64,000 nt of DNA from Nitrospiraceae bacterium (GCA_003599505.1 QZKO01000067.1:37114-101113); one strand, 5' to 3'; shown: positions 283-61,581, counted from the stretch's first letter. Notes: generated from the letters alone by a model not told the origin. Translations and numbers: made by a program.

Positions 283-1854
283 TTATCCTTTCTTCTTCCG
301 CTCCCTGTACATCCTCACCAGATACTTAAGCTCCTCACTCCCAAGCAGATGCATGATTAAAAAATATACTGTCAGATAAAGCGCCGTCACTCCCGCCAGC
401 GCTCCTGCTTTTTCCGCGATCATACCGCTTTGTGTCCACATATCTCCCCTTATGATGGACCAGCCCATCAGTCCCGTGACAGCGGAAGCCGCGGATATTT
501 TCATAAAAGACCCCGCTATCTTCCTCCCGTCGATGCTGCCGAGTTTTTTCCTCAGCATGAAGAAAAGCACGCAGAAATTTACCGACGCGGCAGCGGCATT
601 GGCAAGGGCGAGGCCGCTGTGCTTCATAGGGCCCAGCAATACCAGGCTGAGCGCGATGTTTGTTATCATCGCGATGACCGCTATTTTCACGGGCGTCTTC
701 GTGTCCTGCATGGAATAAAAGCCTGCCGTTACGATCCGGACGCCGACTATGGCCCATATCCCGAAGGAATAAAAAAGCAGCGCGTCCGCGGTCCCGAGGG
801 TCGCGGCGTATTCAAACCGGCCTCTCTGAAAAAGTATATTCACTATCGGCCCTCTCAGGGCTATCAGCCTCGCCATTGCCGGAACGGTCATGAAAAAAAG
901 CATCCTCAGGGCAAAAGAAAAATCACTCCTCAGATTATCGATTTCTCCTTTTGCCGCGTGCGACGAGAGGGCCGGAAGGACCGCCATCCCCATGGCCACG
1001 CCGAATATCCCCACAGGGAACTGGATGAGCCTCATTGAATAATAAAGATATGTGATGCTTCCCTCCTGAAGGTATGACGCGAGGATGGTGCTGATAAAGA
1101 TGTTGATCTGCGTGACGGCCATTCCCATAGTCGCGGGAAGGACAAGCAGGGACATTTTTTTCAGTCCGGGATGGCTGAAGCCATATTCGGGTTTCAGAGA
1201 GTATCCGTTCCTGAAAAAAGAAGGGAGCTGAAACGCGAACTGTACAAACCCGCCGAGGGCCACCCCTATGGCAACGGCGGCAATAGGCTGTTCAATCCTG
1301 TAAGCGAGCAGGAGGACGACGGCAATTGTAACAATGTTCAGTATCGCCGGGGCGAGAGCGGGGACAAAGAATATCCGCCTCGTGTTCAGGGCCCCCATTA
1401 CAAGGGCCGCAAGACTTACAAAAAGAAGAAACGGGAACATGGTCCTCGTCAGCATGACGGTCAGGGAAAATTTTCCGGGCGTCTTGAGAAAACCGGGCGC
1501 TATCGCGGTGACTATCGCCGGCGCGAAAATGATCCCGGCGATACAGATCGCGCCGACAATGATCAGTATGGCGGTAAAAGTGGTTCTCACGAGCCTCTTC
1601 GCCTCTTCCGCTCCGTGTTTCGTCTGATATTCGGTCAGCACGGGTATAAACGCGGATGACATGGAGCCCTCGGCAAAAAGCTCCCTTAAAAGGTTCGGGA
1701 TCCTGAAGGCGACAAAAAAAGTGTCGGAAAGCCCTGTGGCTCCGAATAACACGGCCAATATCATGTCTTTCACATAGCCGAGTATCCTGCTTATGAAAGT
1801 CGCCGCCGACATCAGCCCCGCGGCCTTTGTTATGTTACGTTTTTCATCCATCAC
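283..1854 (-). CDS. murJ: Lipid II flippase MurJ (MviN)
   Basis: 523 aa multi-TM; SRILGYVKD, AFRIPNLLRELFAEGS, QFPVGIFGVA motifs. Confidence 0.95.
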   Translation of the reverse strand: MMDEKRNITKAAGLMSAATFISRILGYVKDMILAVLFGATGLSDTFFVAFRIPNLLRELFAEGSMSSAFIPVLTEYQTKHGAEEAKRLVRTTFTAILIIVGAICIAGIIFAPAIVTAIAPGFLKTPGKFSLTVMLTRTMFPFLLFVSLAALVMGALNTRRIFFVPALAPAILNIVTIAVVLLLAYRIEQPIAAVAIGVALGGFVQFAFQLPSFFRNGYSLKPEYGFSHPGLKKMSLLVLPATMGMAVTQINIFISTILASYLQEGSITYLYYSMRLIQFPVGIFGVAMGMAVLPALSSHAAKGEIDNLRSDFSFALRMLFFMTVPAMARLIALRGPIVNILFQRGRFEYAATLGTADALLFYSFGIWAIVGVRIVTAGFYSMQDTKTPVKIAVIAMITNIALSLVLLGPMKHSGLALANAAAASVNFCVLFFMLRKKLGSIDGRKIAGSFMKISAASAVTGLMGWSIIRGDMWTQSGMIAEKAGALAGVTALYLTVYFLIMHLLGSEELKYLVRMYRERKKKG

Positions 1855-1886
1855 TCGAACCCTCGAACCCTTGAATCCTCGAACCC
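1854..1886 (+). repeat. 8-bp tandem microrepeat (CCTCGAAC)n upstream of murJ
   Basis: CTCGAAC CCTCGAAC CCTTGAAT CCTCGAAC CC; related copy at 20334-20356. Confidence 0.8.
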
Positions 1887-1986
1887 AATGAAAACATGGT
1901 TGACTTTAACATATAGTTAATGTTAAAAAATATAACATTTTTCCTGAAATTAATTTCAAATATTAATATCTGAAGGAGGGCAGTCA

Positions 1987-2283
1987 ATGCCGGCAAAAGC
2001 AGCGCCCAAAAGAAGCAAATCGGTCCTCAAGAGGGCCCGGCAGTCCAAAGTAAAAACTCTCGTAAATAAATCCGAAAAGAGCATGCTGAAGACCCTTTCA
2101 AAGAACGTTGAGCAGGACGTGGCGAACAAGAATGCCGGGGCCGCGCAGACCGCGCTTAAAAAGGCTGTTTCCGCTATCGACAAAGCCGCAAAGAAAGGGA
2201 TAATACACAGGAATACGGCGTCAAGAAAGATCTCCCGGCTCACAAAGCTCGTCAATTCCATGACTTCTTCTGAAGCAGCTTAA
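1987..2283 (+). CDS. rpsT: 30S ribosomal protein S20
   Basis: Basic 98 aa; IDKAAKKGIIHRNTASRKISRL signature; GGAGG RBS. Confidence 0.97.
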   Translation: MPAKAAPKRSKSVLKRARQSKVKTLVNKSEKSMLKTLSKNVEQDVANKNAGAAQTALKKAVSAIDKAAKKGIIHRNTASRKISRLTKLVNSMTSSEAA

Positions 2284-3205: not shown

Positions 3206-3749
3206 AGGCAAGTATGGTCCGGGCCACCAGCTCTTTCGCGATCTCGCTGCACGCCTTTTCCACGGCCCTTTCCTTGAGAGCGGCGCTTTCACTCACGGTC
3301 CCGGTGGATTGAAAAGTTATCTTTATGGGAGAAGCCATAGACCTGAACTCGGTGACCTTCTCCCTGTCCGTCAGCTTAATGTCGACCTGCAAAATAACAG
3401 ACTGCTCCTTTATCCTGTCATCAACCGCTCCTATGGCCCCAAGCTGGAAAGTGGTGACCGTGGCCTCGAGCTCGACGTCTCCTCCCGCTGCCCTGACCTC
3501 GATTCCCTGATTGATAAACTCTTCTGAAAGGGCGTTGTGCATCTTCTCTTCAAGCCGGGGCTCATAAGTTTTATTCTGGACCTGCTTAATCGTAATGGAA
3601 TGAAACGACAGGGGTATCGAGCCGATCATGTGATAACCGCAGGAGGAGGCAATAAGCAGTAAGCAGTAAGCGGTAAGCAGCAGTAGGGGCAATTCATGAA
3701 TTGCCCTTACGCCTTTTCCGGATTCCTGCTTTTGGACCTTGAATTTCAT
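3195..3749 (-). CDS. lptE: LPS assembly lipoprotein LptE
   Basis: Lipobox SSCGY, leuS-lptE-holA synteny; N-terminus partly encoded by REP and heptamer repeats. Confidence 0.8.
3653..3710 (+). repeat. (TAAGCAG)4 heptamer run plus REP-like palindrome inside lptE
   Basis: TAAGCAG TAAGCAG TAAGCGG TAAGCAG (3653-3680); GTAGGGGCAATTCATGAATTGCCCTTAC (3683-3710), 28-bp palindrome with one mismatch. Confidence 0.9.
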
Positions 3750-6226
3750 ATTACTATATTCACAAGCCTGCCTTGAACAACCACGACCTTCTTCAACGTC
3801 TTGCCGTCAAGGTGTTCCCTCACCTTTGGTTCGGAAAAGGCCTTTTCTTTTACCGCTTCGTCGTCAAGCCCGGCAGGGATCATGACCCTTCCTCTGACCT
3901 TCCCGTTTATCTGGACCACAAGCTCGGTTTCTTCTTCTTTCGCGATCTCCTCATCCCATGAAGGCCAGGGCTGTTTCAGCAGGCCTTCTTTCCCCCCGGT
4001 CTGCCGCCAGAGCTCTTCCGCGACATGCGGGGCAAAAGGAGAAAGGAGAACAATCGCCTGTCTCATACTCAGGCCCAGGACTTCGAAATCCTTTTCCCCT
4101 GACGGATTAAACGACGATATCTCATTGATCAGTTCCATCAGCGCCGCAATAGCGGTATTGAAATGGTAGTCCTTTTCAATGCTGCCGGTGACTTTTTTTA
4201 TCGTCTGGTGCGTCTTCCTTAAAAGGCTGATGGCTGAAGGCTGAAGGCTGAAAATTTCCTCAATTTTGAATTTTGAATCTTGAATTTTGAATTTGTTGTT
4301 ATACACAAGTCCCCATACCCTGTTCAAAAACCTGTACGCGCCTTCCACCCCCTGGTCCGACCATTCGAGGTCCCTCTCCGGGGGCGCGGCGAACATGCAG
4401 AATACCCTCACCGTGTCAGTGCCGTATTTATTAATGAGGAAATCCGGGTCCACTACATTGCCCTTTGACTTGGACATCTTGGCGCCGTCCTTGATTACCA
4501 TCCCCTGTGTGAGCAGGCTTGTGAAGGGTTCATCTGTTTCTATGAGACCGATGTCCCTGATGACTTTCGTAAAAAAGCGTGAGTACAGCAGATGGAGAAC
4601 GGCATGCTCAATCCCCCCGATATACTGGTCGACCGGCATCCAGTATCGCAGGGGCGATTCATGAATCGCCCCTGCTGACCGCTGACCGCTGATCGCTGAA
4701 TTCAAATCAACCTTTGCGTTCCCGCCGAGACAATAAGCTATGAAATACCATGAAGAGTCCACAAAGGTATCCATGGTGTCTGTTTCCCTTCTCGCGTCTT
4801 TTCCGCAGCGGGGACATTTTGTATCAACAAAACTTTTTACTTCAAGCAATGGAGAAACTCCCTTGCCCGTGAAAACGACATCCTGGGGCAGTATGACCGG
4901 AAGCTCGTTTTCCGGGACCGGCATGATGCCGCAGGAATCACAATAGACTACCGGTATCGGGGTCCCCCAGTATCTCTGGCGCGAGATGCCCCAGTCTCTC
5001 AGCTTGTAATTGACAACCCTCTTGCCCAACTCTTTTTGTTCAATGTAATCTGCGATCTTTTCTCTGGCTTCTCTGGAAGGCAGACCGGAGAATTGAGATG
5101 AATCAACAAGGATGCCGTCTTCTTCAAAGGCCCCCTCCCTTGACCCCTCGCCCCTTGCCCCTTGCCACTTTTCTATAACTACCTTCACAGGCAAATCATA
5201 TTTCTTCGCAAATTCAAAATCCCTCTGGTCATGCGCTGGCACGGCCATGACCGCGCCTGTTCCATATTCCATGAGGACAAAATTTGCAACCCATATGGGG
5301 ATATGGTCCCCGGTCAGGGGATTTTCAGCGTAATGACCGGTAAACACCCCTTCCTTTTGCTCCGGGTCTTCAGAAAGAGATGCTATCTCCCTTCTTGTAT
5401 TCTCATCCTTCACCAGTCCTTCAACAAGAGGATGCATCTTCGCCACGCTCATAAACGTCGCTCCATAGAGCGTATCCTGTCTTGTGGTAAAAATCCTTAC
5501 AGTCCTGTCAGTGCCGACGATTTTAAAATCAACTTCCACTCCTTCGCTGCGCCCTATCCAGTTCCGCTGCATGGTGACGACCTTTTCCGGCCAGCCGCCC
5601 AGTTTATCAGCGTCTCTCAGGAGCTCTTCAGCATAGCCGGTGATTTTAAAGAACCACTGTTCAAGCTCCTTCTGAATGACTGTGTTGTCGCAGCGCCAGC
5701 ACTTTTCGTCTATAACCTGCTCATTGGCAAGGACGGTTTCACAGGAAGGACACCAGTTGACAAAAGAGGCCTTCTTATAAGCGAGACCGCGTTCAAGCAT
5801 TTTCAGAAAGAACCACTGGTTCCACCTGTAATATTCAGGTTTGCATGTCGTTACTTCCCGCGCCCAGTCATAGCTCAAGCCCATCTTTTTCAACTGGCCC
5901 TTCATGTAGTCGATATTTTCAAACGTCCATTTCGCGGGAAGCACGCCGTGCTTTATAGCTGCGTTTTCAGCCGGAAGCCCGAAAGCGTCCCAACCCATCG
6001 GATGCAATACATTGAAGCCGCGCATCTTCTTGTATCTGGCAATGACATCTCCGATAACATAGTTCCGCACATGCCCCATATGTATCCTGCCGGAAGGATA
6101 AGGGAACATCTCGAGGCAGTAGAATTTCGGCAGACTGTGGTCTTCCCTTACAGAAAACAGTCCCTCTTTTTCCCAGTGCTCCTGCCACTTCTTTTCTATC
6201 TCTTTCGGATTATATTTCTCTTCCAA
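3746..6226 (-). CDS. leuS: Leucine--tRNA ligase
   Basis: HMGH and KMSKS motifs, CP1 editing domain; TTG start at 6226 preceded by GGAGG. Confidence 0.98.
4225..4294 (+). repeat. Two heptamer runs inside leuS: (GGCTGAA)4 and (TTTTGAA)4
   Basis: 4225-4252 and 4264-4294; encode [25 protein letters not shown]. Confidence 0.9.
4648..4701 (+). repeat. REP-like palindrome plus (GCTGACC)4 heptamer run inside leuS
   Basis: GCAGGGGCGATTCATGAATCGCCCCTGC perfect 28-bp palindrome (4648-4675), then GCTGACC GCTGACC GCTGATC GCTGAAT. Confidence 0.92.
5137..5166 (+). repeat. (CCCCTTG)4 heptamer run inside leuS
   Basis: CCCTTGA CCCCTCG CCCCTTG CCCCTTG; encodes [10 protein letters not shown]. Confidence 0.85.
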
Positions 6227-6292
6227 ACACTGCCTCCTGCATCTCCCCATTCATTCAGATTGGTTTGTATTTTACCATACGGTATTTTTTTC

Positions 6293-8187: not shown

Positions 8188-10467
8188 TTGACATTAACCG
8201 GCAGACTTCATGCACGCAGAATCCTGACCTTTTTTTTTCTCGCGGCATTATTTTCCCTTATAACCATTCCCCGGGTTTCAGCAGAGTCCGGACCTGTCAT
8301 CAACTCTATAGAATTGAAGGGAAACAGGAAGATCGGCAGCGAAACGATACACGCCAGAATAAAAAGCAGGGCCGGGGAGCCCTTTTCAAAAGATACCGTC
8401 CGGGAAGACATAACACGCCTGTATACCCTGGGTTACTTTGACGATATCAGGGTTGAAATCGATTCGTTCGAAGGCGGCGTCAGTCTCATTTTCATCATTA
8501 CTGAAAAACCGTCCATAACCGCCATTGATTTCCAGGGGAACAAAGAATATGAAGTCAAAGACCTGAAAGAAAAGATAGCCATAACCCCCGGCGCGATCGC
8601 CGACCTGACTTTGATAGCCGACAATGCCCTGAAACTGGCGTCTTTCTATCAGTCCGAAGGATACTGGCTCGTGAAAGTGCTTCCGGTCCTCAGGGAGATC
8701 TCAAAAGATTCAGTGGCCCTCACCTACCAGATCGACGAAGGACCGAAAGTCATAATCGGAGATATAACGGTAGAAGGTAATAAGGCCGTACCGGGAAAAG
8801 AAATCCTTAAGGTCATGAAGACAAAAGAGAGAGGCCTTTTCTCATTCATAACCGGTACAGGCATTTATCAAAAGGAAGAGATAGTCGCGGACCTCCGCAG
8901 GATCAGGGAGCTGTATCAGAACAAAGGCTTTATCTATGCCGCTGTTTCAGAACCGGAAATCACCCTCAGTCCCGACAGGAAAAAGCTCTCCATAAAAATT
9001 TTTATCTCGGAAGGAGACCGGTATAAAGTCGGCGAGCTGAAGGTTGCGGGCAACAGGGTATTCTCTTCCGGTGAACTGCTCCCCGACATGAAAACCGCTT
9101 CCGGACAGGTCTTCAACAGAAGCGCCTTAAGGTCCGACATTGACGGACTGATAGACCGTTATATGGAAAAGGGCTACGCGCAGGCGGACATCAATCCGCT
9201 TATCGACGTCGACGCCGGAAACAGGATTGCCAATATCACCCTGTCCGTAACCGAAGGAGAAATATTCCGGATCGGCAGGATAGAGATCTCGGGCAACACA
9301 AAGACCCGTGATAAGGTGGTCAGGAGAGAAATAAGGCTTGACGAAGGAGACGTTTTCAACAAGAAACTTCTGAAGAGGAGTTACCAGAGGATAAACAACC
9401 TCAACTTCTTTGAAACTGTCGATATTACCCCTTACCCGCGTCCACAGGAGAACCTCATCGACCTTGACGTAAAGGTAAAGGAAAAATTGACGGGCATGCT
9501 CAGCATCGGCGGCGGCTACAGCTCCGTTGATAAATTTATGGTCATGGGAGAGATAACGCAGGGGAACCTTTTCGGGAAAGGTCTTTATCTCAAATTCAAG
9601 GCCGACCTGAGCGCAAGGAGGTCGAATTACAATATCTCCCTGAGAGACCCCTGGTTCATGGACCAGCCCGTATCAGCGTCAATCAGTCTTTTTAACGAGT
9701 CTTTCGAATATCCGGATTATGACAAAAAGTCCACGGGCGGCACTATTGGTTTCGGGAAAGAAATCTCGGAATACGTCGGGGGGAATATTACATACAACAT
9801 TGAAACAGTTGAAATTACGGATGTATCCGACACCGCGTCATCCCTCATCAGGGAACAGGAAGGCAGAAAGCTCACCAGCAGCATAAGCCCTTCGATATGG
9901 AAAGATACCCGTGATAATTACATAGACCCCTCAAACGGTTACAGACACGCGCTTTACACGACCTTCGCGGGTCTCGGCGGCGACAATTACTATGTAAAAG
10001 GGCTGGCTGATTCGGTATGGTATTTTCCGCTGAAATGGAATACCGTATTCGGTTTCCGGGGACGTCTCGGCTACGCAACGGGCTTTGCGGGAGAAGAGCT
10101 TCCCCTGTATGAAAGATTTTATGTAGGCGGAATCAATACGGTAAGGGGGCTCGGGTTCGGCGAAGGGGGACCGAGAAACGAGGAAGGAGAAAAGGTCGGC
10201 GGCAATCTTGAAATGATATTCAACGCCGAATATATCTTCCCTCTTGTAGAGGATATCAGGCTCAAAGGGGTGGTCTTCTTTGACTACGGCAGCTCCTTTG
10301 ATAAAAATGATAAATTTTCCCTGAGTGATATGCGGGGCACAACCGGCTTCGGCTTCAGGTGGATTTCTCCTTTCGGACCTCTAAGGCTGGAATGGGGGTT
10401 CAACCCTGACCCGAGAGATGATGAAAGCAGAAGCAAACTCGAATTCTCATTGGGAGGATTCTTTTAG
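8188..10467 (+). CDS. bamA: Outer membrane protein assembly factor BamA
   Basis: POTRA repeats, RFYVGGINTVRG loop 6, terminal Phe; probable TTG start 8188 after AAGGAG; bamA-skp-lpxD synteny. Confidence 0.95.
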   Translation: MTLTGRLHARRILTFFFLAALFSLITIPRVSAESGPVINSIELKGNRKIGSETIHARIKSRAGEPFSKDTVREDITRLYTLGYFDDIRVEIDSFEGGVSLIFIITEKPSITAIDFQGNKEYEVKDLKEKIAITPGAIADLTLIADNALKLASFYQSEGYWLVKVLPVLREISKDSVALTYQIDEGPKVIIGDITVEGNKAVPGKEILKVMKTKERGLFSFITGTGIYQKEEIVADLRRIRELYQNKGFIYAAVSEPEITLSPDRKKLSIKIFISEGDRYKVGELKVAGNRVFSSGELLPDMKTASGQVFNRSALRSDIDGLIDRYMEKGYAQADINPLIDVDAGNRIANITLSVTEGEIFRIGRIEISGNTKTRDKVVRREIRLDEGDVFNKKLLKRSYQRINNLNFFETVDITPYPRPQENLIDLDVKVKEKLTGMLSIGGGYSSVDKFMVMGEITQGNLFGKGLYLKFKADLSARRSNYNISLRDPWFMDQPVSASISLFNESFEYPDYDKKSTGGTIGFGKEISEYVGGNITYNIETVEITDVSDTASSLIREQEGRKLTSSISPSIWKDTRDNYIDPSNGYRHALYTTFAGLGGDNYYVKGLADSVWYFPLKWNTVFGFRGRLGYATGFAGEELPLYERFYVGGINTVRGLGFGEGGPRNEEGEKVGGNLEMIFNAEYIFPLVEDIRLKGVVFFDYGSSFDKNDKFSLSDMRGTTGFGFRWISPFGPLRLEWGFNPDPRDDESRSKLEFSLGGFF

Positions 10468-10533
10468 CTGTAAGCGATAAGCTGAGTTGTTTGCTGCTGC
10501 TTACAGCTTATCGCTTATGGCTTATAGCTTATT
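10467..10533 (+). repeat. Inverted pair of heptamer runs between bamA and skp
   Basis: GCTGTAA GCGATAA GC ... GCTTACA GCTTATC GCTTATG GCTTATA GCTTATT. Confidence 0.85.
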
Positions 10534-11100: not shown

Positions 11101-11129
11101 GTAGGGGCGACCCGCCGGGTCGCCCCTAC
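11101..11129 (+). repeat. REP-like palindrome with GTAG foot
   Basis: GTAGGGGCGACCC-GCC-GGGTCGCCCCTAC, perfect 13-bp arms. Confidence 0.9.
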
Positions 11130-30253: not shown

Positions 30254-30258
30254 GTGTG

Positions 30259-33552: not shown

Positions 33553-33556
33553 GCTG

Positions 33557-47114: not shown

Positions 47115-47641
47115 ATGGGGACATCAGAAATCATTCCGCAGGAAGTTGTAGAAAGCAAAATACTATTCATCAGAGGAAAGAAGGTAATGCTGGACAGGGA
47201 CCTTGCAGCGCTTTACGGGATGAGACAAGGACATTAAATCAGGCTGTCAGAAGGAATATAAAGCGCTTCCCTGAAGACTTTATGTTTCAGCTAACAAAAG
47301 AAGAAATAGAAAATTGGAAATCACAAATTGTGATATCCAATAAAGAGAAAATGGGATTAAGAAAAACGCCTTACGCCTTCACTGAGAACGGAGTGTCTAT
47401 GCTGTCCAGCGTCCTCAGCAGTGAACGCGCGATCACAGTAAACATCCAGATCATGAGGACATTTACAAAAATCCGGGAGATGCTCATAGCCCATAAAGAT
47501 CTCGCTAAGCGGCTCGACGAGCTTGAAACGAGATATGACGCTCAGTTTAGGATTGTATTTGATGCCATCAGGCAATTGATGTCTACGCCGGAGACGAAGA
47601 AGCGGAAGATCGGGTTTAATAGGGAGAGGGAAGAGAGTTGA
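47115..47641 (+). pseudogene. ORF6N-domain DNA-binding protein, frameshifted
   Basis: IRGKKVMLDRDLAALYG then a 1-bp loss near 47220; continues ETRTLNQAVRRNIKRFPEDFMFQL; flanked by 9-bp repeat runs at 46994-47029 and 47635-47700. Confidence 0.85.
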
Positions 47642-47925
47642 TGGAGTTAAACTTTTTAACTCTAAGAACTCAATGAGCTCATTAAACTCTATGAACTCTT
47701 ATTTTAGATATTGGGTTAAGGCGGAGAAGGATGGGCCGGGGTATCATCTTTTGCCGTATCACTGTCTGGATGAGAAATGCTGATAATTTACAGAAATAAT
47801 TCAGAAGGATTATTGTATACTTACTGACATGCACATATGCCTTATGCAGGTAAGTGAGTGTGGGGATATCGGGTTATCAATAAAAGTACTCACAAATTAT
47901 TCGACGGCATTTAAGGGAGGCATCT

Positions 47926-49379: not shown

Positions 49380-51815
49380 ATGAAAAATAAAAACAGCACA
49401 CATCAGCCGGAGGCGTTTTCAAGAATCCTAATTGATCGTGCTCTTACTGACAGCAATTGGGATTTACTGAATCCTCAGCAAGTCCAGTTCGAACATCATA
49501 CGCCCACCGGCAGAGCTGATTACCTTTTGAAAGATAACATAGGCCGTGTTTTGTGTGTCCTTGAAGCAAAACGCGAGGACTTAGACCCTTATGACGCGAA
49601 GGAACAGGCACGCGGCTATGCTGAAAATCGCAACGCGCCGTTTGTTATCCTGTCCAATGGCCGTGAACATTGGTTCTGGAATCTCCAACGCGCTGAACAT
49701 CAGGATGCATATCGCATCGAGCGACTGCCTTCTCAGAAGGATCTGGAGCGGGTGCGTCTTAAGAATTTACAACCACCACGGGAGCTTCGGTCAGAGGTTG
49801 TAACCCCTGACTATCTCTATCGCCTGAGACCTGATTTGAAGTTGCGCGGTTATCAGATTAACGCTATGGAGGCTATTGCTGACCTTTACGATAAGGAAGG
49901 ACGGCGCAAATTCCTTCTTGAAATGGCCACTGGCACAGGAAAGACTTTGCTCTGCGCTGCACTGATCCGGAGATTTCTGGCAACCCGCAACGCTGAACGT
50001 GTACTGTTCATCGTTGACCGCATTGAACTGGCAAAACAGACGATGGAGGATTTCAATATCGTCCTCGGCGAGTATAAGCCGGTCATCTACAAGACAGCTC
50101 GCCGCACCGGAGAATTGCTGGGGTCTTCTGTTGTTGTGGCCACGATCCAGTCACTCATGACTGATCGTCGCTACCGGCAGGAATTTACCCCGTTCTACTT
50201 TGATCTTGTTATCAACGATGAGGCGCACCGGTCAATCTACGGAGATGCCCGCGAAGTCGTCCAGTTTTTTCAGGCTACCCGAATCGGTCTGACCGCTACG
50301 CCTAAGGCATACCTGAAGAACGTGGACATTCAGCAACTTGCTCAGGAAAACCCGAAGACCCTTGAGGCCCGGCAGTTGCGGGACACCTATCATTATTTCG
50401 GATGTGAGCCTGGCGAGCCGACCTTCCGTTATGACATCATTGACGCAGCCAAAGACCCCGAAGGGCCGTTTCTCTGTACGCCCAAAATCGTGGATGTTCG
50501 CACTGACATTACTACGAAGTCCCTTGAAGAGGCCGGCTGGACTGTCACGGTAGACGAGAAGGAAGAGAACTATAAGATTCAGGATTTGGAGCGAAAGATA
50601 TTTACGCTGCATCGGAATCGAGTGATGTGCGAAGTATTCCTTCGTGAAAGTCAAAAGGCCCCGGATGGCAATGTCGGCAAGTCCATTATATTTGCCGTTA
50701 ACCAGTCCCATGCCACAACATTAACGAAAATTTTGAATGTGATTAAGCCCGGCATAGCTTTAACGATCACTTCGCGTATTTCTGATTCATCCTCGCTGGC
50801 AAAGGAATTCCGCGACGGCAAACGTTCTGAACGTATCGCCGTTTCCGTGGATATGCTTTCAACCGGATACAACTGTCGCGACCTGTTGAATGTTGTGCTT
50901 ATGCGGCCAGTCTTTTCGCCGACTGAGTACATTCAGATCAAGGGACGAGGGACAAGGCGATATACTTTTGTCATCGGCAATACGGAGTATGAAAAGAGAT
51001 GGTTTTTCCTTCTCGATTTCTGCGGTGTAGCTGAGTACTTTGAAGAGAAATACGATTATTCCATTCCGCTTGTAGTGCCCCGGCCTCGCGGCGGCTCCTC
51101 CGGATCATCAGGTGGTGTTCGTTATCCGCTTCCAGAGGCCACATATGGGCAGGGTAATATAAATGATCCTGGCCCGGACGATGGTCAGCAATATAGCCAT
51201 AGATCAATCCCCATATGGGAAGGGACGGATCTGGTAGTCAGCCAGGAAGTGCGAATAGTCGGGCCAAACGGCGAAAAGGTTGATGTCATGACCTTCAGAG
51301 GATCGTTCGAACGCGACCTCAAGGAGTTTGCCACATCCGATGATGAGCTTTCTCAGGCAGTGGAGATTGAGGATGATGACGTGATAGAAACGGTCATGCA
51401 GGAGCGATTTTACCACAAGCCTGAAATGTTCTATTCGCCGGACAAACTGGTCGTCGCCTATGGCGTGCCTGCTCCCACACCGGCCTTTGTGTATAACGCG
51501 CTTGGCAAAAAGCCTTTGCCGAGCAAGGAGCAGATTGTATCCGACACTGTGGAATCCATTGCCGCACGTTTCAATCTTCGGTACAGCGAGCAGAAATGGC
51601 TGAATGCTACAGCAGAACTCGTGGCCGATGACCGGGGCGCGCTCGACAAGCTTATGAGTGGTGATTTCTCAATATTCAGCGGAAGCCAATTCACAAGGCT
51701 CGGGGGGGTGCAGGCACTTGCGAAGTTTAATGAACGGGACGCCGTGTTCGAGGCGCTTCGTCAGTCCAGCCTGATTAAACAATCAAGATTAGCTTCCGCA
51801 AGCCGGGCGCGTTGA
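49380..51815 (+). CDS. hsdR: Type I restriction enzyme R subunit
   Basis: ADYLL..EAK nuclease, MATGTGKT, DEAH, GLTATP, QIKGRGTR. Confidence 0.88.
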   Translation: MKNKNSTHQPEAFSRILIDRALTDSNWDLLNPQQVQFEHHTPTGRADYLLKDNIGRVLCVLEAKREDLDPYDAKEQARGYAENRNAPFVILSNGREHWFWNLQRAEHQDAYRIERLPSQKDLERVRLKNLQPPRELRSEVVTPDYLYRLRPDLKLRGYQINAMEAIADLYDKEGRRKFLLEMATGTGKTLLCAALIRRFLATRNAERVLFIVDRIELAKQTMEDFNIVLGEYKPVIYKTARRTGELLGSSVVVATIQSLMTDRRYRQEFTPFYFDLVINDEAHRSIYGDAREVVQFFQATRIGLTATPKAYLKNVDIQQLAQENPKTLEARQLRDTYHYFGCEPGEPTFRYDIIDAAKDPEGPFLCTPKIVDVRTDITTKSLEEAGWTVTVDEKEENYKIQDLERKIFTLHRNRVMCEVFLRESQKAPDGNVGKSIIFAVNQSHATTLTKILNVIKPGIALTITSRISDSSSLAKEFRDGKRSERIAVSVDMLSTGYNCRDLLNVVLMRPVFSPTEYIQIKGRGTRRYTFVIGNTEYEKRWFFLLDFCGVAEYFEEKYDYSIPLVVPRPRGGSSGSSGGVRYPLPEATYGQGNINDPGPDDGQQYSHRSIPIWEGTDLVVSQEVRIVGPNGEKVDVMTFRGSFERDLKEFATSDDELSQAVEIEDDDVIETVMQERFYHKPEMFYSPDKLVVAYGVPAPTPAFVYNALGKKPLPSKEQIVSDTVESIAARFNLRYSEQKWLNATAELVADDRGALDKLMSGDFSIFSGSQFTRLGGVQALAKFNERDAVFEALRQSSLIKQSRLASASRAR

Positions 51816-51832
51816 TAAAGGAGATTTGATTC

Positions 51833-53343
51833 ATGGTCACACCTCAAACCACATCCACAAAAACAAACGGCTCCAATTTCTATTCGTCCGGCCTTCGCCA
51901 AAAGATTGACCAGCTTATGAATATTCTCTGGGCAGGAGGCGTCAACAATCCCATGGACTCCATAGAGCAGCTTTCGTATCTCATTTTTCTCCGCTTGCTG
52001 AGCGAACGCGATGAATTAATGGCCTCTATGGACAAGAAATACACCCGGATCTTTTCCGGACAGTGGGCGCGCTATGCCTGGGGCAACTTCGTGACCCTAA
52101 CCGGAGACCCCCTCTTCAATGCTGTCCGTGATGCCATCGAGAAGTTTCATGAGCTTCCGGGTCTCTAGAGACAGGCAAGCTGCTTTTTAATCGCGCCACT
52201 TTGAAAATTTACGAACGTCCGACCTTACGTGCAGTCATTCAGGCCATTCACGAGATGGACCTTGCCGTTCATGAGGGCGGAGACATCAAGGGCGACATGT
52301 ATGAATATCTTCTCAGCAAACTCGCGCAATCCGGCACTAACGGACAATTCCGCACACCACGTCATATTATTGATCTCATAGTTACCCTGGTTGACCCCAA
52401 GCCCGGCAAACGCATCTGCGACCCTGCCTGCGGCACGGCGGGATTTCTGATCTCGGCTTACAATCACATACTGAGAAATAACACGAAGCCTGCTGATCTG
52501 TCCCGTGGATTGGTTGATGGCGGCAAGCTAAAGCCCGCTCAATGGAAATTCATGGAGGAGCACGCCTTTACCGGGTTTGACAACGATGCAAACATGGTCA
52601 AGATAGCGATACTCAATTTGTACCTGCACCAGCTTGAGAAAGCACACATCGAGTTTCATAACCCTCTGACGACTACCAAGGGCGGGCAATATCCAGGACA
52701 GCTTTTTGACGTTATCCTCGCCAATCCGCCCTTTGCCGGAAAGATACAAAAGGAGAGCATCCTTGCCGACATAGGGCTTGAAACACGAGACACTGAACTA
52801 CTCTTTCTCAAATGGTTCATGGACCATCTTGCGAACGGCGGCAGGGCTGGTGTTATTGTCCCGAATGGAGTACTCTTTGGTTCAGGCAAGGCAGACAAGA
52901 AGGTGCGGGAACTATTACTCACAACCTGTGATCTTCAGGCCGTTATTGCCTTGCCGTCTGGTGTCTTCAAACCCTATTCCGGCGTCGGCACTGCTATCTT
53001 TATCTTTGAAAAAGGTGGCCCGACAGAGTCAGTCTGGTTCTATGAACTTACTGCAGACGGTTTATCTCTGGACGATAAGCGAACACAAATCGAAGCAAAT
53101 GACATTCCGGATCTCATCGCCAAGTGGCCGAAACGTGAAGAGGGGCCAAATAGCTTCAATGTGCCGATTGATCGCATTCGAGATGATGGGCTGAGGCTTA
53201 TGATAGGACATTACAAGCCTGATATGTTGGATGCGGTACTGCACGACGCTCCGGAGAAAATTTTGGCAGACATCATTCACCTTGAATCGGAGATCACTGC
53301 GCGAGCTAATATCTTATTGAAAAAGTTGGATTCTGACAAATGA
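51833..53343 (+). pseudogene. hsdM: Type I R-M methyltransferase, frameshifted
   Basis: GQFRTPRH, DPACGTAGF, NPPF; 1-bp loss at about 52166 creates TAG; frames rejoin as LPGLSETGKLLFN. Confidence 0.88.
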
Positions 53344-54491
53344 GCCGTTGGCCGCAAAAACCTCTGCTGGAAGTTGCCAGGCTGACCCGCGGCACTGAGC
53401 CGGGCAGTGTAAGTTACACAGATTCTTCGCGAGGTGTTCGCTTCCTACGAGTAGGGGACATCACTGGAAAAACTAATAATCCTGTTTACACTGACGCAGC
53501 TCGGCCCGTATTGGTCACAGAGACCGATGTCCTGCTCGCCATAGACGGTTCACCGGGATACGTAAGCACGGGGCACAGAGGGGCTATTAGTTCCGGTCTT
53601 CGCAAAGTCGAACCCATTGATCCGAACAAAGTCTCACTGGACTGGCTTCGGTATTCGCTTATGTCGCCGGATATCCAGCACACAATTTGCAAGTATACAA
53701 ATGGTGTGACAATCCTGCATGCCTCGTCTGCTATTCCCCATGTCAGCATTCCCATTCCGCCTTTATCTGAGCAGAAGCGCATCGTTGCGCTATTGGATGA
53801 GGCTGATCAGTTGCGATGACTACGGGCCGAAGCTAATGAGCGAACAGCACGTGCCATCTCTGGACTATTTTCGACATTGTTTTCCGAAAGCCGTGCAACA
53901 GAAAGTTGCTGGCCTGTAATAACTATGGGGGAACTTTTCTCGCATGTAAGTGGTGCAACGCCATCTACTGAGAACCCAGATTTCTGGTCTGGTGCGATTC
54001 CCTGGGTTAGTCCAAAGGACATGAAGTCATCCGAAATTTATGACTCATCTGATCATATTTCGAATGCAGCGCTAAAATCGTCGCGGTTACGGCTCTTGCC
54101 TAAAGACATAGTGCTCATCGTTATAAGGGGCATGATCCTCGCTCACACGTTTCCTGTCGCAATCGCACGCGTTCCGGTAACAATAAATCAGGACATGAAA
54201 GCGTTATTGCCTTGTGCGGAGATTGAGCCTGATTATCTCCACTGGCTGCTAAAGGCAAATGCTCCAAAGATTCTTTCCCTTGTTTCTACCGCAGGTCATG
54301 GCACGAAACGCCTTGAAATGGCCTCGCTACTCGGCTTAGCGATTTCTGTTCCGCCTAAGTCGTTACAGCAGGAGTTTTCCGCCTATGTTTCACAAGTGCG
54401 CATACTTGAGGCTACACAGGTTGATAGCCGACGGCGACTTGAAGATCTATTCCAATGCTTACTTCACCGCGCCTTTCAGGGTGAGCTATGA
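53340..54491 (+). pseudogene. hsdS: Type I R-M specificity subunit with one in-frame TGA
   Basis: IPIPPLSEQKRIV and VPPKSLQQEF repeats; TGA at 53817-53819, both halves in one frame. Confidence 0.85.
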
Positions 54492-55657: not shown

Positions 55658-56438
<781 letters not shown>

Positions 56439-56501
56439 GATTTTGTCGGTAGATTTTTGCTCTTTGAAAACTGACTTATAATTTACCAGGTTATCAGAAG
56501 C

Positions 56502-56694
56502 ATGTTCCCCACACACGTGGGGATGAACCGGCGAAGACCCGTACACACAGGAATATATGAGAATGTTCCCCACACACGTGGGGATGAACCGGACAGACCA
56601 AAAGTGGTAATCGTTTTACTATTATGTTCCCCACACACGTGGGGATGAACCGAGATTTTTTCCATCCCGAATAGGCAACGGAAAATGTTCCCCC
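56502..56694 (+). CRISPR. Type I-E CRISPR array: 3 full repeats, 1 truncated repeat, 3 spacers
   Basis: 29-bp ATGTTCCCCACACACGTGGGGATGAACCG at 56502, 56563, 56624; partial ATGTTCCCC at 56685; 32-bp spacers; AT-rich leader 56439-56501. Confidence 0.97.
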
Positions 56695-56818
56695 TACAAG
56701 TGTTGCAAGTGGTCCGATACTCTGCTATATTTTCAATTAAGATCTAAAAAGTAATTTCTTATCGTCTTTGGACGCGGACTTTGGCGACCGAAGGACCAAT
56801 AATGAAAGGACAAGCGTA

Positions 56819-58093
56819 ATGAAAAAAGTGTGTTTACGAATATTGACATGCACGCTGCTCCTGTCGCTTATGCTGCCTGCCGCGGGCTTTGCCCAGTATA
56901 CTGAAGCCTCCACGACATTCAGGGAGGAAGAACTGGAGCAGATGCTGGCGCCTGTTGCGCTGTATCCGGATACCCTTCTGATTCAGATATTGATGGGCGC
57001 TACCTATCCTCTCGAGATAGTGGCCGCGGCGCGGTGGGTGCAGGACAACCCGGATATTAAGGGGGACGAGCTGGCAGCGGCCCTGGAGCAAAAGGACTGG
57101 GACCCGAGCGTAAAGTCCCTGGTGAACTTCCCCTCTGTGCTCGCCGTTATGAATGACAAAATCGAGTGGACGCAGAAACTGGGTGACGCCTTCCTCGCCA
57201 GGGAGGAACAAGTCATGGACACAGTCCAGAAGCTCAGGCAGAAGGCGTACGCACAGGGGAACCTGAATGACTCGAATGAACAGAAGGTCATCGTCCGGGA
57301 GAAGGTGATAGTGATTGAACCGGCGGGTCCGGAGGTGATCTATGTGCCTTATTACGATCCGTTCGTGGTGTTCGGCCCGTGGTGGTACCCGGCATTCCCG
57401 CCGTTTTTCTTCCATCCACACAGTTTTTTTATAGGCCACCGCGTCATTTTTTTCAGCTCCCCCATATTCATCGGGGCGCCATGGGGGTTTGCCTTCGGGA
57501 TATTTGATTGGCCACATCGTCATGTTTTCATAAACGTCCACAAACACGTCACTGTAAACAGATTCATAGATCGCAACAGGTTTATCAGAGAATTCAGATT
57601 AGGGCATGACGGCACAGGCCGATGGCAACATGATGCAAGACACCGGAGAGGCGTGATTTACAGGGAAAGGACCACTCGCGAGAGATTCAGACAAGTGGAA
57701 AGACCGGGTGCGGAGGAGCGAAGGGATTTTCGGGGACGTTTTCCGGACGTGAGGACAAGGTCCCCGCTGCTTGATGATCGCGGTGTGACCCGGCCCGGAG
57801 ATGATTCCGGACGTGGCCGTCCCGACCGGGACAGAGAGCGTCCTGCCGGGGAATCAATAAGACAGACTCCTCAGCGCGAGGTTGTGCGGCCAGGCAGGCG
57901 ACCTGACGCATTTGAGGGTATCGAACGCGGCGGAGACGACGCAAGGATCAGCGGTGATCGGGGACGGAGGAGTCGTGAGACCAGAAGCGCCCCTGCTGTC
58001 GGCAGGGATGGAGATGGGCGAAGAGACGATGGAGACAGACGGAGAGGCCGTGGCAGCGGAGATGGAGGCAGCGGTGATGGTCGCCGGAGATAA
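56819..58093 (+). CDS. DUF3300 domain protein
   Basis: LEQMLAPVALYPDTLL, WDPSVKSL, IYVPYYDP; Arg/Gly/Asp-rich tail; ATG 56819. Confidence 0.88.
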   Translation: MKKVCLRILTCTLLLSLMLPAAGFAQYTEASTTFREEELEQMLAPVALYPDTLLIQILMGATYPLEIVAAARWVQDNPDIKGDELAAALEQKDWDPSVKSLVNFPSVLAVMNDKIEWTQKLGDAFLAREEQVMDTVQKLRQKAYAQGNLNDSNEQKVIVREKVIVIEPAGPEVIYVPYYDPFVVFGPWWYPAFPPFFFHPHSFFIGHRVIFFSSPIFIGAPWGFAFGIFDWPHRHVFINVHKHVTVNRFIDRNRFIREFRLGHDGTGRWQHDARHRRGVIYRERTTRERFRQVERPGAEERRDFRGRFPDVRTRSPLLDDRGVTRPGDDSGRGRPDRDRERPAGESIRQTPQREVVRPGRRPDAFEGIERGGDDARISGDRGRRSRETRSAPAVGRDGDGRRDDGDRRRGRGSGDGGSGDGRRR

Positions 58094-59503: not shown

Positions 59504-59608
59504 CCACTTACCCCTCCCCGGTCCTCTCCGGTCGGTTTGCCTATCGAAACGCATTTTCGTATAATATCAACCTGAATTTATGAATTTACATCCGGAGGAC
59601 AATATCTC

Positions 59609-60391
59609 TTGAATATCATCGTCTGCATAAAACAGGTCCCGGACACGGCAGAGATCAGGATCAACCCTGAAACAAACACCCTTATGCGTGAAGGCGTTCC
59701 AAGCATTATAAACCCCTTCGACCTTCACGCGCTTGAGGCGGGACTGCAGATAAAAGAAAAGATCGGCGGCAAGGTGGTTGTGCTCACCATGGGACCGCCG
59801 CAGGCTGAAACAGCCCTGAGAGAAGCGATCTCAATGGGCGCTGATGAGGCGGTGCTCCTTTCGGACAGGGCCTTTGCCGGCTCTGATACATGGGCCACAT
59901 CATATACTCTCGCGCAGGCTGTCAGGAAACTCGGGGCCGATGTCATCTTTTGCGGAAAGCAGGCGATTGACGGCGACACCGCGCAGGTCGGGCCGGAAAC
60001 AGCGGAATTCCTGGGCATCCCCCATATCTCGTATATCAGGAAGATAGAAGAAATAAAAGATAATTATATCAGGGCGCAGCGGCTCATGGACGAAGGATAT
60101 GATATTGTAGAGTCTTCGCTGCCTGTGCTGCTCACTGTCGTCAAGGAATTAAACCAGCCGAGGATGCCTTCCTTAAAAGGCAAAATGGCCGCGAAAAAAG
60201 CAGAGATTAAAAAGATGGGCAAAGATGACATCCAGGCGGATGAAAACAATATCGGATTAAAAGGCTCTCCTACCCAGGTAAAGAAAATCTTCGCGCCTGA
60301 AATAAAGGCTGAAAGAAAGATGCTGGATGGGACTCCCGAGGAGCAAGCCGATGCGCTTGTTCAGGAATTGAGGAAATTTAAATGCCTGTAG
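59609..60391 (+). CDS. etfB: Electron transfer flavoprotein beta subunit
   Basis: IVCIKQVPDT, INPFDLHALE, GKQAIDGDTAQVG; TTG start. Confidence 0.95.
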   Translation: MNIIVCIKQVPDTAEIRINPETNTLMREGVPSIINPFDLHALEAGLQIKEKIGGKVVVLTMGPPQAETALREAISMGADEAVLLSDRAFAGSDTWATSYTLAQAVRKLGADVIFCGKQAIDGDTAQVGPETAEFLGIPHISYIRKIEEIKDNYIRAQRLMDEGYDIVESSLPVLLTVVKELNQPRMPSLKGKMAAKKAEIKKMGKDDIQADENNIGLKGSPTQVKKIFAPEIKAERKMLDGTPEEQADALVQELRKFKCL

Positions 60392-61581
60392 TCGTAAGAG
60401 TTGATAAATGCACCGGCTGTGAAACGTGCCTGGCCTCCTGCCCCTTTGACGCCATCGTGATTAAAGAAGGTAAGGCTTTTATCAATGAATATTGCAATTA
60501 CTGCAAGACCTGCGTCTCGGTATGTCCCGAAGGGGCGATAGTAGAGACAGAAGACAGCGGTCAGCAGTCAGCGGTCAGCGGTCAGCTTAAAGATTACAAA
60601 GATGTGCTGATTTTCGCTGAGCAGAGAGAAGGGAAGGCGGCCCCTGTCGCGTTTGAGCTTCTCGGCGCCGGCAGGAGGCTTGCGGACGAGCTCGGCGCGA
60701 AATTACTCGCCGTGCTTCCGGGCGCAGGCGAATCCGAAGCAAAAGAGCTGATCAGGTGGGGCGCCGACAGGGTATTCGTGTGCGATGACTCCCGTCTCCT
60801 GAAATTCAACGATGACGCATATGCTGATATTCTCACAAAGGTAATCAGCGAACAAAAGCCTTCTATCGCGCTTGCCGGAGCAACACCCGTTGGAAGGTCG
60901 TTTATCCCGCGCGTGGCCGCAAGGTTAAGGACCGGTCTGACGGCGGACTGCACATCGCTTGAAATAGACAGGGACTCGGGCAATCTCCTCCAGATACGCC
61001 CGGCGTTCGGCGGCAATATTATGGCAACGATCCTGTGTCCAGATTACAGGCCGCAGATGGCGACAGTAAGACCCCGCGTGATGAAAAGAGGCGTATACGA
61101 TGAAAACAGGGCCGGTGAAATCATAAATATTCAGATGGATAAAATCCCTTCAAGGACGAAGGTCCTGGACACCGTCAGGGAAGTATCGGAGATCAGCGTC
61201 AACCTCCACGAGGCGGAATTTATAGTAGCGGGAGGAAGAGGCGCGGGCGGTGAAAAAGGTTTTAAACTGCTTGAAGAGCTCGCGCAGGCCCTGGGCGGGG
61301 TTGTCGGCGCGTCAAGGGCCGCGGTCGACGAGGGATGGATTTCATACAGCCATCAGGTAGGACAGACCGGCAAGACGGTAAACCCGAAAATATATATCGC
61401 CTGCGGCATTTCAGGGGCCGTCCAGCATCTCGTCGGAATGCAGTCGTCGGATATTATCATCGCCATCAATAAGAACCCCGAAGCCCCTATCTTCAATGTG
61501 GCAACATACGGCATTGTCGGGGACCTGTTCGAGATAGTGCCGATGCTGACAAAAAGGGTTAAGGAAATAAAAGGCGCGTGA
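60382..61581 (+). CDS. etfA: Electron transfer flavoprotein alpha subunit with N-terminal ferredoxin domain
   Basis: Two CxxCxxCxxxCP motifs; GLTADCT, QVGQTGKTV, GISGAVQH. Confidence 0.95.
   Translation: MPVVVRVDKCTGCETCLASCPFDAIVIKEGKAFINEYCNYCKTCVSVCPEGAIVETEDSGQQSAVSGQLKDYKDVLIFAEQREGKAAPVAFELLGAGRRLADELGAKLLAVLPGAGESEAKELIRWGADRVFVCDDSRLLKFNDDAYADILTKVISEQKPSIALAGATPVGRSFIPRVAARLRTGLTADCTSLEIDRDSGNLLQIRPAFGGNIMATILCPDYRPQMATVRPRVMKRGVYDENRAGEIINIQMDKIPSRTKVLDTVREVSEISVNLHEAEFIVAGGRGAGGEKGFKLLEELAQALGGVVGASRAAVDEGWISYSHQVGQTGKTVNPKIYIACGISGAVQHLVGMQSSDIIIAINKNPEAPIFNVATYGIVGDLFEIVPMLTKRVKEIKGA
60555..60586 (+). repeat. (CAGCGGT)4 heptamer run in the etfA interdomain linker
   Basis: CAGCGGT CAGCAGT CAGCGGT CAGCGGT CAGC, encoding SGQQSAVSGQL. 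Confidence 0.88.

Follow-up and report, generated by a model that had tools for sequence, protein, structure and literature searches.

Short heptanucleotide tandem arrays at gene junctions and within conserved genes of a Nitrospiraceae bacterium

Results

Tandem heptad arrays lie between genes and in frame within essential genes

We analysed a 64,000-nucleotide stretch of DNA from a Nitrospiraceae bacterium (GCA_003599505.1 QZKO01000067.1:37114-101113), hereafter the window, with positions counted from its first letter. Short tandem repeats were found both in intergenic positions and in frame within essential genes, as listed below.

1854 to 1886, minus strand: 8-mer array GGGTTCGA, 4.1 copies (murJ sense), abutting the murJ start codon; the sole genuine 8-mer array
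3649 to 3680, minus strand: heptad array CTGCTTA, 4.6 copies (sense), coding the signal-peptide hydrophobic core of the lipoprotein LptE
3683 to 3710, no strand: GTAG-type REP palindrome in frame in lptE, adjoining the 3649 array; a separate kind of element
3746 to 6250, minus strand: leuS gene, with four arrays across three loops
4223 to 4252, minus strand: heptad array TTCAGCC, 4.3 copies (sense), LeuRS loop 3, 11-residue peptide
4262 to 4294, minus strand: heptad array AAAATTC, 4.7 copies (sense), LeuRS loop 3, 11-residue peptide
4649 to 4674, no strand: REP-like palindrome in frame, LeuRS loop 2 (AGAIHESPL), abutting the 4674 array
4674 to 4699, minus strand: heptad array GGTCAGC, 3.7 copies (sense), LeuRS loop 2
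5137 to 5170, minus strand: heptad array CAAGGGG, 4.7 copies (sense), LeuRS loop 1, 11-residue peptide; loop length as in non-carriers
10461 to 10532, plus strand: inverted heptad pair TAAGC+NN / GCTTA+NN, lying between bamA (stop codon) and skp (ribosome-binding site); predicted hairpin in RNA (-36 kcal/mol, z = -5.0)
13379 to 13411, plus strand: heptad array CAGGGGC, 4.7 copies, at the lpxA/lpxI overlap, inside the called LpxI N-terminal extension
14245 to 14323, plus strand: inverted heptad pair GGCTATG / CCTAT+NG, lying between lpxI and a GFO/IDH oxidoreductase gene; predicted hairpin (-50 kcal/mol, z = -7.9)
36328 to 36365, minus strand: decayed heptad array AGCNNNN, 6 copies, coding the signal-peptide core of a SurA-like protein
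44367 to 44400, minus strand: heptad array TAATGAG, 4.9 copies (sense), spanning an ABC ATPase stop codon and a permease start codon
46258 to 46318, plus strand: inverted pair of GCTTA+NN-family heptads a short way upstream of tRNA-Ala; 27-bp hairpin, almost perfect (-41.7 kcal/mol, z = -8.3)
47635 to 47699, plus strand: inverted GAGTT / AACTC cores at 7-9-nt spacing, downstream of an ORF6N-domain gene; only a weak period-9 row in TRF
60555 to 60586, plus strand: heptad array CAGCGGT, 4.6 copies, in the ferredoxin/ETF-alpha domain linker (EtfA), coding DSGQQSAVSGQ; unit class as at 4674

TRF returned 16 period-7 rows in the window, and eleven of these entries (3649, 4223, 4262, 4674, 5137, 10499, 13379, 14293, 44367, 46258/46285 and 60555) reached at least 3.7 copies. 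Our own detector, with a cut-off score of 12 or more, identified 10 heptad arrays in the window against 0.0 in 30 dinucleotide-preserving shuffles, while the other periods from 2 to 13 yielded zero arrays at this score. Thus the original prediction that period 7 is special was borne out; the result it had named as refuting, the lack of an excess of 7 over periods 5, 6 and 8, is not what the window shows, as only 7 passes. Among short periods, 7 was also the dominant one in the leuS neighbourhoods of other genomes (773 kb and 963 kb). Both TRF and our detector placed the units head-to-tail in tandem. The period-7 copy number by TRF was 2.1-4.9, typically four to five and never nine, so that the proposed range of three to nine units per locus did not hold. 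The proposal of additional 8-mers and 9-mers stood for the array at 1854; beyond it and one imperfect run of 9-mers, these are for the most part repeats of some two copies. The repeats at 20340 and 31242 carry about two copies each, the one at 46994 falls under the TRF threshold and the one at 47635 is the weak row listed above. In the shuffle comparison the two-copy repeats at 20340, 30042 and 31242 were near chance level.

Approximately half of the arrays are translated in frame within conserved genes. Six translated arrays were counted: LeuRS has four, and the LptE signal peptide and the EtfA linker have one each. The three leuS sites expected at the outset were confirmed as three loops, and the expectation that coding copies give rotating-frame peptides was correct. 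The intergenic arrays are mainly inverted pairs, which are predicted to form strong hairpins at gene junctions (z from -5 to -8), and arrays were found in both orientations relative to transcription. Overall, the arrays occupy fixed, permissive sites, namely spacers between cistrons, leaders abutting start codons, signal peptides, a linker between two domains and three variable loops on the LeuRS surface. In phase-variable contingency loci, altered repeat numbers turn dispensable surface or restriction-modification genes on or off; the arrays here do not fit that pattern, being placed in leuS, lptE and etfA and at operon junctions, and TRF detected none in the window's type I restriction-modification genes.

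Units fall into genome-specific families

The units had been described as unrelated, which failed on inspection: they fall into genome-specific families such as GCTTA+NN, TCAGC+NN and CCTAT+NG. GCTTA+NN occurs at 3649, 10461/10499 and 46258/46285, GCTGACC at 4674 and 60555 with a degenerate copy at 36335, and CAAGGGG-like units at 5137, 13379 and 50939, while CCTAT+NG is present as an inverted pair. Distant loci within one genome shared units in 26 pairs against 5.9 expected (P<0.001). Mismatches were concentrated at a small number of neighbouring positions within the unit (P about 0.01), giving a pattern of a core plus a variable spacer, and neighbouring variant units resemble unit duplications, for example two TGTCACT followed by two TGTTACT. 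The GAGTTNNGAGTT motif was not enriched in the window. The TTTTGAA/TTCAAAA unit of the 4262 array is common to the window and Nostoc PCC 7120; (TTCAAAA)4 and its scrambled control (ATCATAA)4 each gave at least 120 matches in public genomes, numbers from which relative frequencies cannot be compared. What these matches do show is that many different heptad units occur widely in public genomes, in a lineage-specific way.

Array length showed a ceiling. Copy numbers of 4.x were found in 10 of 11 window arrays and 23 of 34 clade arrays, and only two reached five copies or more; unlike the clade, samples from cyanobacteria and from Bacteroidota/Verrucomicrobiota had long copy-number tails (Fisher p about 0.001). 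Five units correspond to about 32-35 nt. Frame constraint was rejected as the lone cause of the 4.x mode, because intergenic arrays likewise cluster at 29-35 nt.

Array positions are shared with relatives while their sequences differ

We compared the window with four relatives (L082-L085), whose LeuRS identity is 82-92%. These carry arrays at matching sites, but with other units and copy numbers. LeuRS loops 1-3, the lptE signal peptide and the leuS-lptE junction hold arrays in several of the four, the bamA-skp junction holds one in L085 too, and the lpxI-gfo junction forms a hairpin with repeated arms in L085 and L407. Array positions are orthologous across 15-18% LeuRS protein divergence. 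The lptE array has 4.6, 4.6, 5.4, 7.4 and 6.6 copies in the window, L082, L083, L084 and L085, respectively, with the unit ACTGCTT in L084 and ACTTCTT in L085. L084 and L085 are about 92% identical both in DNA and in LeuRS protein, and the majority of their large differences fall at array sites; one 8-mer site has 1.6 copies in L084 versus 4.25 in L085. Array types in LeuRS loop 3 disagree with the LeuRS tree, L084 resembling L083 and L085 resembling L082. Among carriers of a loop-1 array, five of eight keep the normal loop length of 19-20 aa, and in L085 a REP palindrome abuts the loop-1 array. Near-identical locus pairs from other phyla (L054/L120 and L033/L039) displayed only generic single tandem duplications, and the arrays are spread patchily across phyla. 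A metagenome scan with LeuRS identified no close relative, the top match being 63%.

Judged by sequence comparison, the arrays are old in position and fast-changing in sequence, since relatives carry them at matching sites with differing units and L084 and L085 differ mostly at array sites. The other result named at the outset as refuting, that the tracts are ancient conserved coding sequence, therefore holds for the age of the positions and not for the sequences, which are not conserved between relatives. The comparison showed that array sequence is replaced far more quickly than the DNA on either side, and that all units of one array change together, indicating concerted evolution.

Discussion

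The arrays belong to the known class of bacterial heptanucleotide repeats, as they display tandem 7-nt units, a period-7 excess, several dispersed families and unit numbers that vary between related genomes. The nearest known case is that of the cyanobacterial STRRs, for which no mechanism is established, and the original prediction was right on both points. STRRs of heterocystous cyanobacteria were reportedly described by Mazel et al. in 1990. The STRR1-3 units are CCCCAGT, TTGGTCA and CAACAGT, none of which matches a consensus unit of the window. In Rickettsia, palindromic elements are tolerated in frame within genes, as are the arrays here. With regard to other published systems, the arrays share with the STRRs of Nostoc dispersed heptamers in a few genome-typical families, often beside start codons (PMC4692102, 10.1101/2022.06.06.494920), whereas the cyanobacterial arrays reach 8 to 21 copies at sampled loci and the host here is an anaerobic Nitrospirota lineage. 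The TAACTGA repeats of marine Beggiatoaceae are also intergenic heptamers, in two to six copies directly upstream of start codons and with a mechanism unknown there too (PMC4679880), but one unit dominates each genome, in contrast to the many units and in-frame coding arrays of the window. Xanthomonas GGGAATC repeats are intergenic heptamers, some in inverted stem-loop pairs, which lie between the same genes across species with varying length and sequence; they differ in being a single G-rich, quadruplex-forming family of which only 7-11% overlap ORFs (PMC4692102).

The description of the arrays as a candidate undescribed system was thus overstated, as an excess of bacterial heptanucleotides has been in the literature since 2007. 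As the survey of Mrazek, Guo and Shah (2007) is relayed in two later papers (PMC4679880, PMC4692102), heptanucleotides are over-represented and are, among long SSRs, the commonest class in many bacteria, polymerase slippage was proposed as the cause, and coding repeats were mainly multiples of three. On that account, those SSRs and the window arrays have in common an excess of 7-nt units, many unit types per genome and carriers scattered over the phylogeny, and they differ in that the window arrays stay under five units, are about half translated and, where intergenic, are mostly inverted hairpin pairs.

We propose, with a probability of about 0.5, that the arrays are an STRR-like heptanucleotide simple-sequence class, a trait across a Thermodesulfovibrionia-type Nitrospirota clade, which is turned over in a 7-nt register, through slippage or template switching, and filtered by frame and tolerance. 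Taking the 7-nt register as given, units would arise and become uniform through strand slippage or intra-array template switching as the DNA is replicated or repaired. In coding DNA a change would survive only if it netted a multiple of three bases, which would permit gains or losses of three units, a loss offset by a gain, or conversion that keeps the length, and would therefore let arrays overwrite loops rather than lengthen them. Strand-switch copying of an array may give rise to inverted pairs, which would remain at gene junctions as stable hairpins in RNA or DNA and could there influence translation or the stability of the mRNA. Against the earlier preference for a generative mechanism over ordinary slippage, the fast concerted turnover at fixed sites fits slippage or template switching. 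However, simple slippage does not predict the five-unit ceiling, the vocabulary shared between loci or the in-place replacement of loops; nor does it predict loop 3 types that depart from the LeuRS tree, or clustered mismatches.

Several of these features are where a dedicated trans-acting system that maintains or writes the arrays would gain its support, and we regard such a system as rather unlikely but worth weighing. It might be a single-strand binder in a 7-nt register, with a footprint of the cold-shock or OB-fold type and the arrays as selected sites, or an enzyme or ectopic conversion that homogenises arrays genome-wide. The genome-specific unit vocabulary, the lineage-specific vocabularies in public genomes, the ceiling at about 32-35 nt, the core-plus-variable-spacer pattern, the operon-junction sites kept while their sequence changes, the loops replaced at unchanged length and the patchy distribution over phyla are all consistent with it. 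Furthermore, each CspB protein is reported to bind a single heptamer (PMC4679880), and a heptamer-binding partner has been postulated in Nostoc (10.1101/2022.06.06.494920). However, no candidate gene was found, a single sequence-specific binder is unlikely because arrays within one genome have different units, arrays occur in either orientation relative to transcription, and a binding role is not obviously needed for the arrays that code for LeuRS loops. More doubtful still is the specific form in which a dedicated 7-nt-register process replaces patches of about 32-35 nt where they stand and makes the arrays of a genome uniform by ectopic conversion or templated writing, possibly through an HUH-type enzyme or a single-strand binder with a heptad footprint. 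If true, such a process would account for the ceiling, the vocabulary, the core-plus-spacer pattern, the length-neutral loop replacement and the patchy spread over phyla.

We find it distinctly improbable that the arrays, and above all the inverted pairs, are non-autonomous mobile elements of the REPIN or MITE type spread by RAYT (an HUH Y1 transposase) or a similar enzyme, with the 5-nt cores perhaps serving as iterated target or cleavage motifs. The window does encode a RAYT (30274-31194; NF047646, 81 bits versus a cutoff of 80) and L082 carries a Y1 gene. The hairpin doublets are of REPIN-like size, and REPINs are likewise hairpin-forming doublets dispersed between genes (PMC3116915). Several loci share one unit family, and both in-gene REP palindromes of the window abut arrays, as does the one in loop 1 of L085. 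However, the inverted repeat that flanks the RAYT gene is another one, GCAAGCCTGACCC, which does not recur as heptads and is itself no heptad unit. The heptad hairpins lack the GTAG foot of REPs, and the GTAG REPs of the window (3683, 11101-11129 and 36455) are separate. The arrays likewise have no master sequence, terminal repeats or target duplications, and their arms are internally periodic. Same-unit arrays have nothing common in their flanks beyond the array, array positions are orthologous over the LeuRS divergence given above, and in relatives arrays occur without REPs and REPs without arrays. No tie was found to the HUH/REP-linked synthesis that had been suggested, nor to the RAYT of the window.

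Finally, chance, assembly artefact or ordinary conserved coding sequence has next to no probability as an explanation: the window does come from a metagenome contig and its two-copy repeats are near chance, to which this reading applies at most, but for the four-to-five-copy arrays it is already refuted, as shuffles yield about 0 arrays, the arrays keep essential genes in frame, and independent assemblies of relatives have arrays at matching sites with sequences that are not conserved.

Why bacterial tandem repeats favour 7-base units has been an open question since the STRR description of 1990 and the survey of 2007. The clade provides clean comparative material, with arrays at fixed, alignable sites in the universal LeuRS and at operon junctions, so that array birth, turnover and limits are measurable against a protein-coding ruler. 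Essential proteins here accommodate frame-rotating repeats as the coding sequence of loops, linkers and signal peptides, which bears on the origin of new peptide segments. If the ceiling and the shared vocabulary reflect a dedicated system, this would represent a novel type of mechanism for genome maintenance or RNA binding.

Tandem arrays of the window mostly have a period of seven

TRF reported 16 period-7 rows in the window, 11 of them at 3.7-4.9 copies. Using our own match/mismatch scoring over periods 2-13, we found that ten heptad arrays passed a score of 12, against a mean of 0.0 in 30 dinucleotide-preserving shuffles. No array of any other period from 2 to 13 passed this score in the window, and the period-14 rows were heptad arrays counted again. 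The special status that the original prediction gave to period 7 therefore holds. That prediction had also counted 8-mers and 9-mers as arrays, which is right for the 8-mer at 1854 (4.1 copies), but the others were two-copy or below threshold. The sequence at 47635-47699 was found to be GAGTT/AACTC in inverted arrangement, and the stretch at 36328 a decayed AGCNNNN array.

Arrays occupy coding sites and gene junctions

The window comes from a JGI metagenome contig of 101 kb. The nearest matches to its LeuRS are those of uncultured Nitrospirota/Thermodesulfovibrionia (72-73% identity among GTDB species representatives, 79% among the best protein-database matches); the host is not a cyanobacterium. 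Gene calls placed murJ, rpsT, holA, lptE, leuS, two small genes and bamA-skp-lpxD-fabZ-lpxA-lpxI-gfo-degT in the first 16 kb. Six arrays in the window are translated (four in leuS, one in the LptE signal peptide and one in a ferredoxin/ETF-alpha linker), and the arrays outside the coding sites listed here all lie at gene junctions. Four loci are inverted array pairs, with hairpins predicted by folding.

Heptad arrays and related repeats of the window
5137: leuS, loop 1, 11 residues
4674: leuS, loop 2, 10 residues
4262: leuS, loop 3, 11 residues
4223: leuS, loop 3, 11 residues
3649: LptE, 13 residues in the hydrophobic core of the lipoprotein signal peptide
60555: linker between ferredoxin and ETF-alpha domains, encoding DSGQQSAVSGQ
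36328: decayed array that codes for the core of the signal peptide in a SurA-like protein
13379: within the N-terminal extension of LpxI as called
1854: 8-mer array adjoining the murJ start codon
44367: TAATGAG x4.9, including both the ABC ATPase stop codon and the permease start codon
10461/10499: inverted pair, -36 kcal/mol, z = -5.0
14245/14293: inverted pair, -50.1 kcal/mol, z = -7.9
46258/46285: inverted pair, -41.7 kcal/mol, z = -8.3
47635-47699: inverted pair, -21.3 kcal/mol, z = -3.6

Alignment with orthologues mapped the leuS arrays to three hypervariable LeuRS loops. Among 163 LeuRS genes compared, eight carry a loop-1 array, and in five of these the loop keeps its standard 19-20 aa. 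Loop-3 carriers exceed non-carriers by just ~2 aa, and lengthening in carriers is confined to loop 2. LeuRS arrays mostly replace loop sequence instead of extending the loops.

Several other features were observed in the window. An AT-rich island (32001-36000; 36.5% G+C vs ~49% elsewhere), with ORFs of 348 and 328 aa lacking a Pfam match, is possibly acquired DNA. A type I restriction-modification system (49380-54491), which contains no heptad arrays, comprises hsdR, hsdM and a specificity gene in two ORFs (53340-53819 and 53877-54491). The region 56130-56653 has a lone cas2 of type I-E style (PF09707), with no further cas genes nearby, followed by a CRISPR-like mini-array of three repeats at 61-nt spacing. 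The DUF3300 gene (56768-58093) carries 21-nt and 15-nt tandem repeats at its 3' end (58007-58080), which, in contrast to the heptads, are in frame with unit lengths that are multiples of three. A minus-strand ORF (63026-64000) holds a 67-nt segment in three diverged copies (63573-63942), 141-162 nt apart, probably a repeated protein module.

Array positions are old and their contents change fast

We fetched four relatives (L082-L085). With the loops excluded, their LeuRS shares 82-85% identity with that of the window (92% between L084 and L085). Their arrays occupy the array sites of the window with different units.

Array units at matching sites
Loop 1: window CAAGGGG; L082 AGGGTCA; L083 CAGAAGA; 8-mer AGCGCGGA in L084 (1.6 copies) and L085 (4.25 copies)
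Loop 2: window TCAGCGG; L082 NNACTCT; L083 AATCAGC; L084 AACTCAA
Loop 3: window AAAATTC + TTCAGCC; L082 AGTNACA + CGTCACT; L085 GTAACGG + TCACTCG; 8-mer AGTGCAGA in L083 and L084
lptE signal peptide: window CTGCTTA x4.6; L082 TGTYACT x4.6; L083 CTTCTTA x5.4; L084 ACTGCTT x7.4; L085 ACTTCTT x6.6

Some relatives also carry arrays at the leuS/lptE junction and in the murJ leader, and L085 at the bamA/skp junction. At the lpxI/gfo junction, three genomes have a hairpin with periodic arms built from three units: GGCTATG (window), GTGTCCG (L085) and GCGCAAAG (L407, a further genome). L084 and L085 align over 11.5 kb at 92% DNA identity; most 60-nt alignment windows below 80% identity are array sites or intergenic DNA, and high identity is regained immediately at the array flanks. 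Their lptE arrays differ by an identical G/T change in every unit, which excludes independent substitutions and demonstrates concerted evolution. Since the same sites carry arrays with other units in relatives, array positions are old, while sequences and copy numbers change fast. The proposed comparison of orthologous loci thus recovered arrays at matching sites but with differing unit sequence and copy number, and the original counter-case, ancient conserved coding sequence, is true of the positions but not of what fills them. The loop-3 array types are discordant with the LeuRS tree (L084 with L083, L085 with L082), for which short-patch recombination, retained polymorphism or convergence could account.

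Around murJ, insertions in L085 (14360-14600 and 16040-16300) and L082 (10960-11150) share a segment, GGGAATGACG / CCAGTCTTTTCAGTAAGTTCTGGATG, and look like a MITE-like element.

Copy number, vocabulary and mismatches depart from simple slippage

Ten of the 11 window arrays of at least three copies have 4.x copies. Counts at 3.x, 4.x and five or more copies were 9, 23 and 2 in loci of the Nitrospirota clade, 32, 32 and 27 in cyanobacterial loci (fetched via another unit), and 57, 38 and 30 in a Bacteroidota/Verrucomicrobiota-rich set (4.x vs five or more across sets, Fisher p ~0.001). Coding arrays peak sharply at 4.x (30/44). A frame rule could explain part of this peak, because a seed of 1.3-1.9 copies plus three units gives 4.3-4.9 copies; it is incomplete, because intergenic arrays also cluster, at 21-26 nt and 29-35 nt.

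The units had been taken as unrelated, which the counts contradict: among 93 arrays, 43 same-class pairs were found vs 5.1 expected, and 26 pairs of arrays >200 nt apart in one genome had units within one mismatch, vs 5.9 by label permutation (P<0.001). The vocabulary is non-random. It is also lineage-specific in public genomes among the matches listed (at least 120 rows each), which were mostly Nostocales for (TTCAAAA)4 and mostly Bacteroidota and Verrucomicrobiota for the scrambled unit (ATCATAA)4. Mismatches within arrays fall at fewer, adjacent unit positions than expected by chance (P ~0.01), giving a core-plus-variable-spacer look (GCTTA+NN, TCAGC+NN, AACTC+NN).

Capped copy number, non-random vocabulary and clustered mismatches are not predicted by simple slippage. 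We propose, with a probability of about 0.5, that arrays turn over through slippage or template switching, with reading frame and tolerance acting as filters. A factor dedicated to the heptad register is possible, though we consider it unlikely.

REP palindromes and arrays share sites

Mobility of the RAYT type could draw on a RAYT gene at 30274-31194 (NF047646, 81 bits vs cutoff 80), which has a Y1 domain and a weak Pfam match to the DnaA C-terminal HTH. However, this gene is flanked by 27-nt inverted copies of GCAAGCCTGACCC (arms 30254-30280 and 31221-31247), which is not a heptad unit. GTAG-type REP palindromes (GGGGCRATTCATGAATYGCCCC) occupy in-frame positions in lptE (3683-3710) and leuS (4649-4674), both adjoining an array; others are intergenic (11101-11129 and 36455-36462). 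Matching LeuRS loops of relatives hold REPs whether or not an array is present (L085 and L002, a Nitrospirota locus, each in loops 1 and 2), and arrays also occur without REPs. We consider RAYT-type mobility of the arrays improbable, and we read REPs and arrays as putatively separate guests of shared permissive sites. Chance or an assembly artefact is hardly credible.

A short CTATACGCT repeat adjoins the right arm of the RAYT inverted repeats. L085 has a near-identical REP in the matching LeuRS loop, and L002 has REP-like palindromes in loops 1 and 2.

A lineage variant of a known repeat class

Our survey of leuS neighbourhoods of named genomes identified arrays with at least 3.4 copies in Nitrospirota (L002-L005), Nitrospinota (L016), Syntrophobacteraceae, Syntrophaceae and other Desulfobacterota (L010, L014, L029, L032, L036), Omnitrophota (L041) and an unclassified bacterium (L048), and none in the sampled Firmicutes loci. 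In many prokaryotes, heptanucleotides are reported to be the commonest class of long SSR, and slippage of the polymerase was put forward to explain this (Mrazek et al. 2007, as described in PMC4679880 and PMC4692102). Examples are TAACTGA in Beggiatoaceae (PMC4679880), GGGAATC in Xanthomonas and GGGGAYT in Nostoc (PMC4692102), and (TTTTGAA)3-4 upstream of 21 genes in Nostoc PCC 7120 (10.1101/2022.06.06.494920), the same unit as in array 4262. A full-text search found no papers joining heptamers with Nitrospirota.

Rather than an undescribed system, the window arrays belong to this known, mechanistically unexplained class. Arrays of the Nitrospirota lineage are capped below five units, often occupy conserved genes in frame, form hairpin pairs at operon junctions and combine fixed sites with fast concerted turnover. 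The lineage thus shows a distinct variant of the class.
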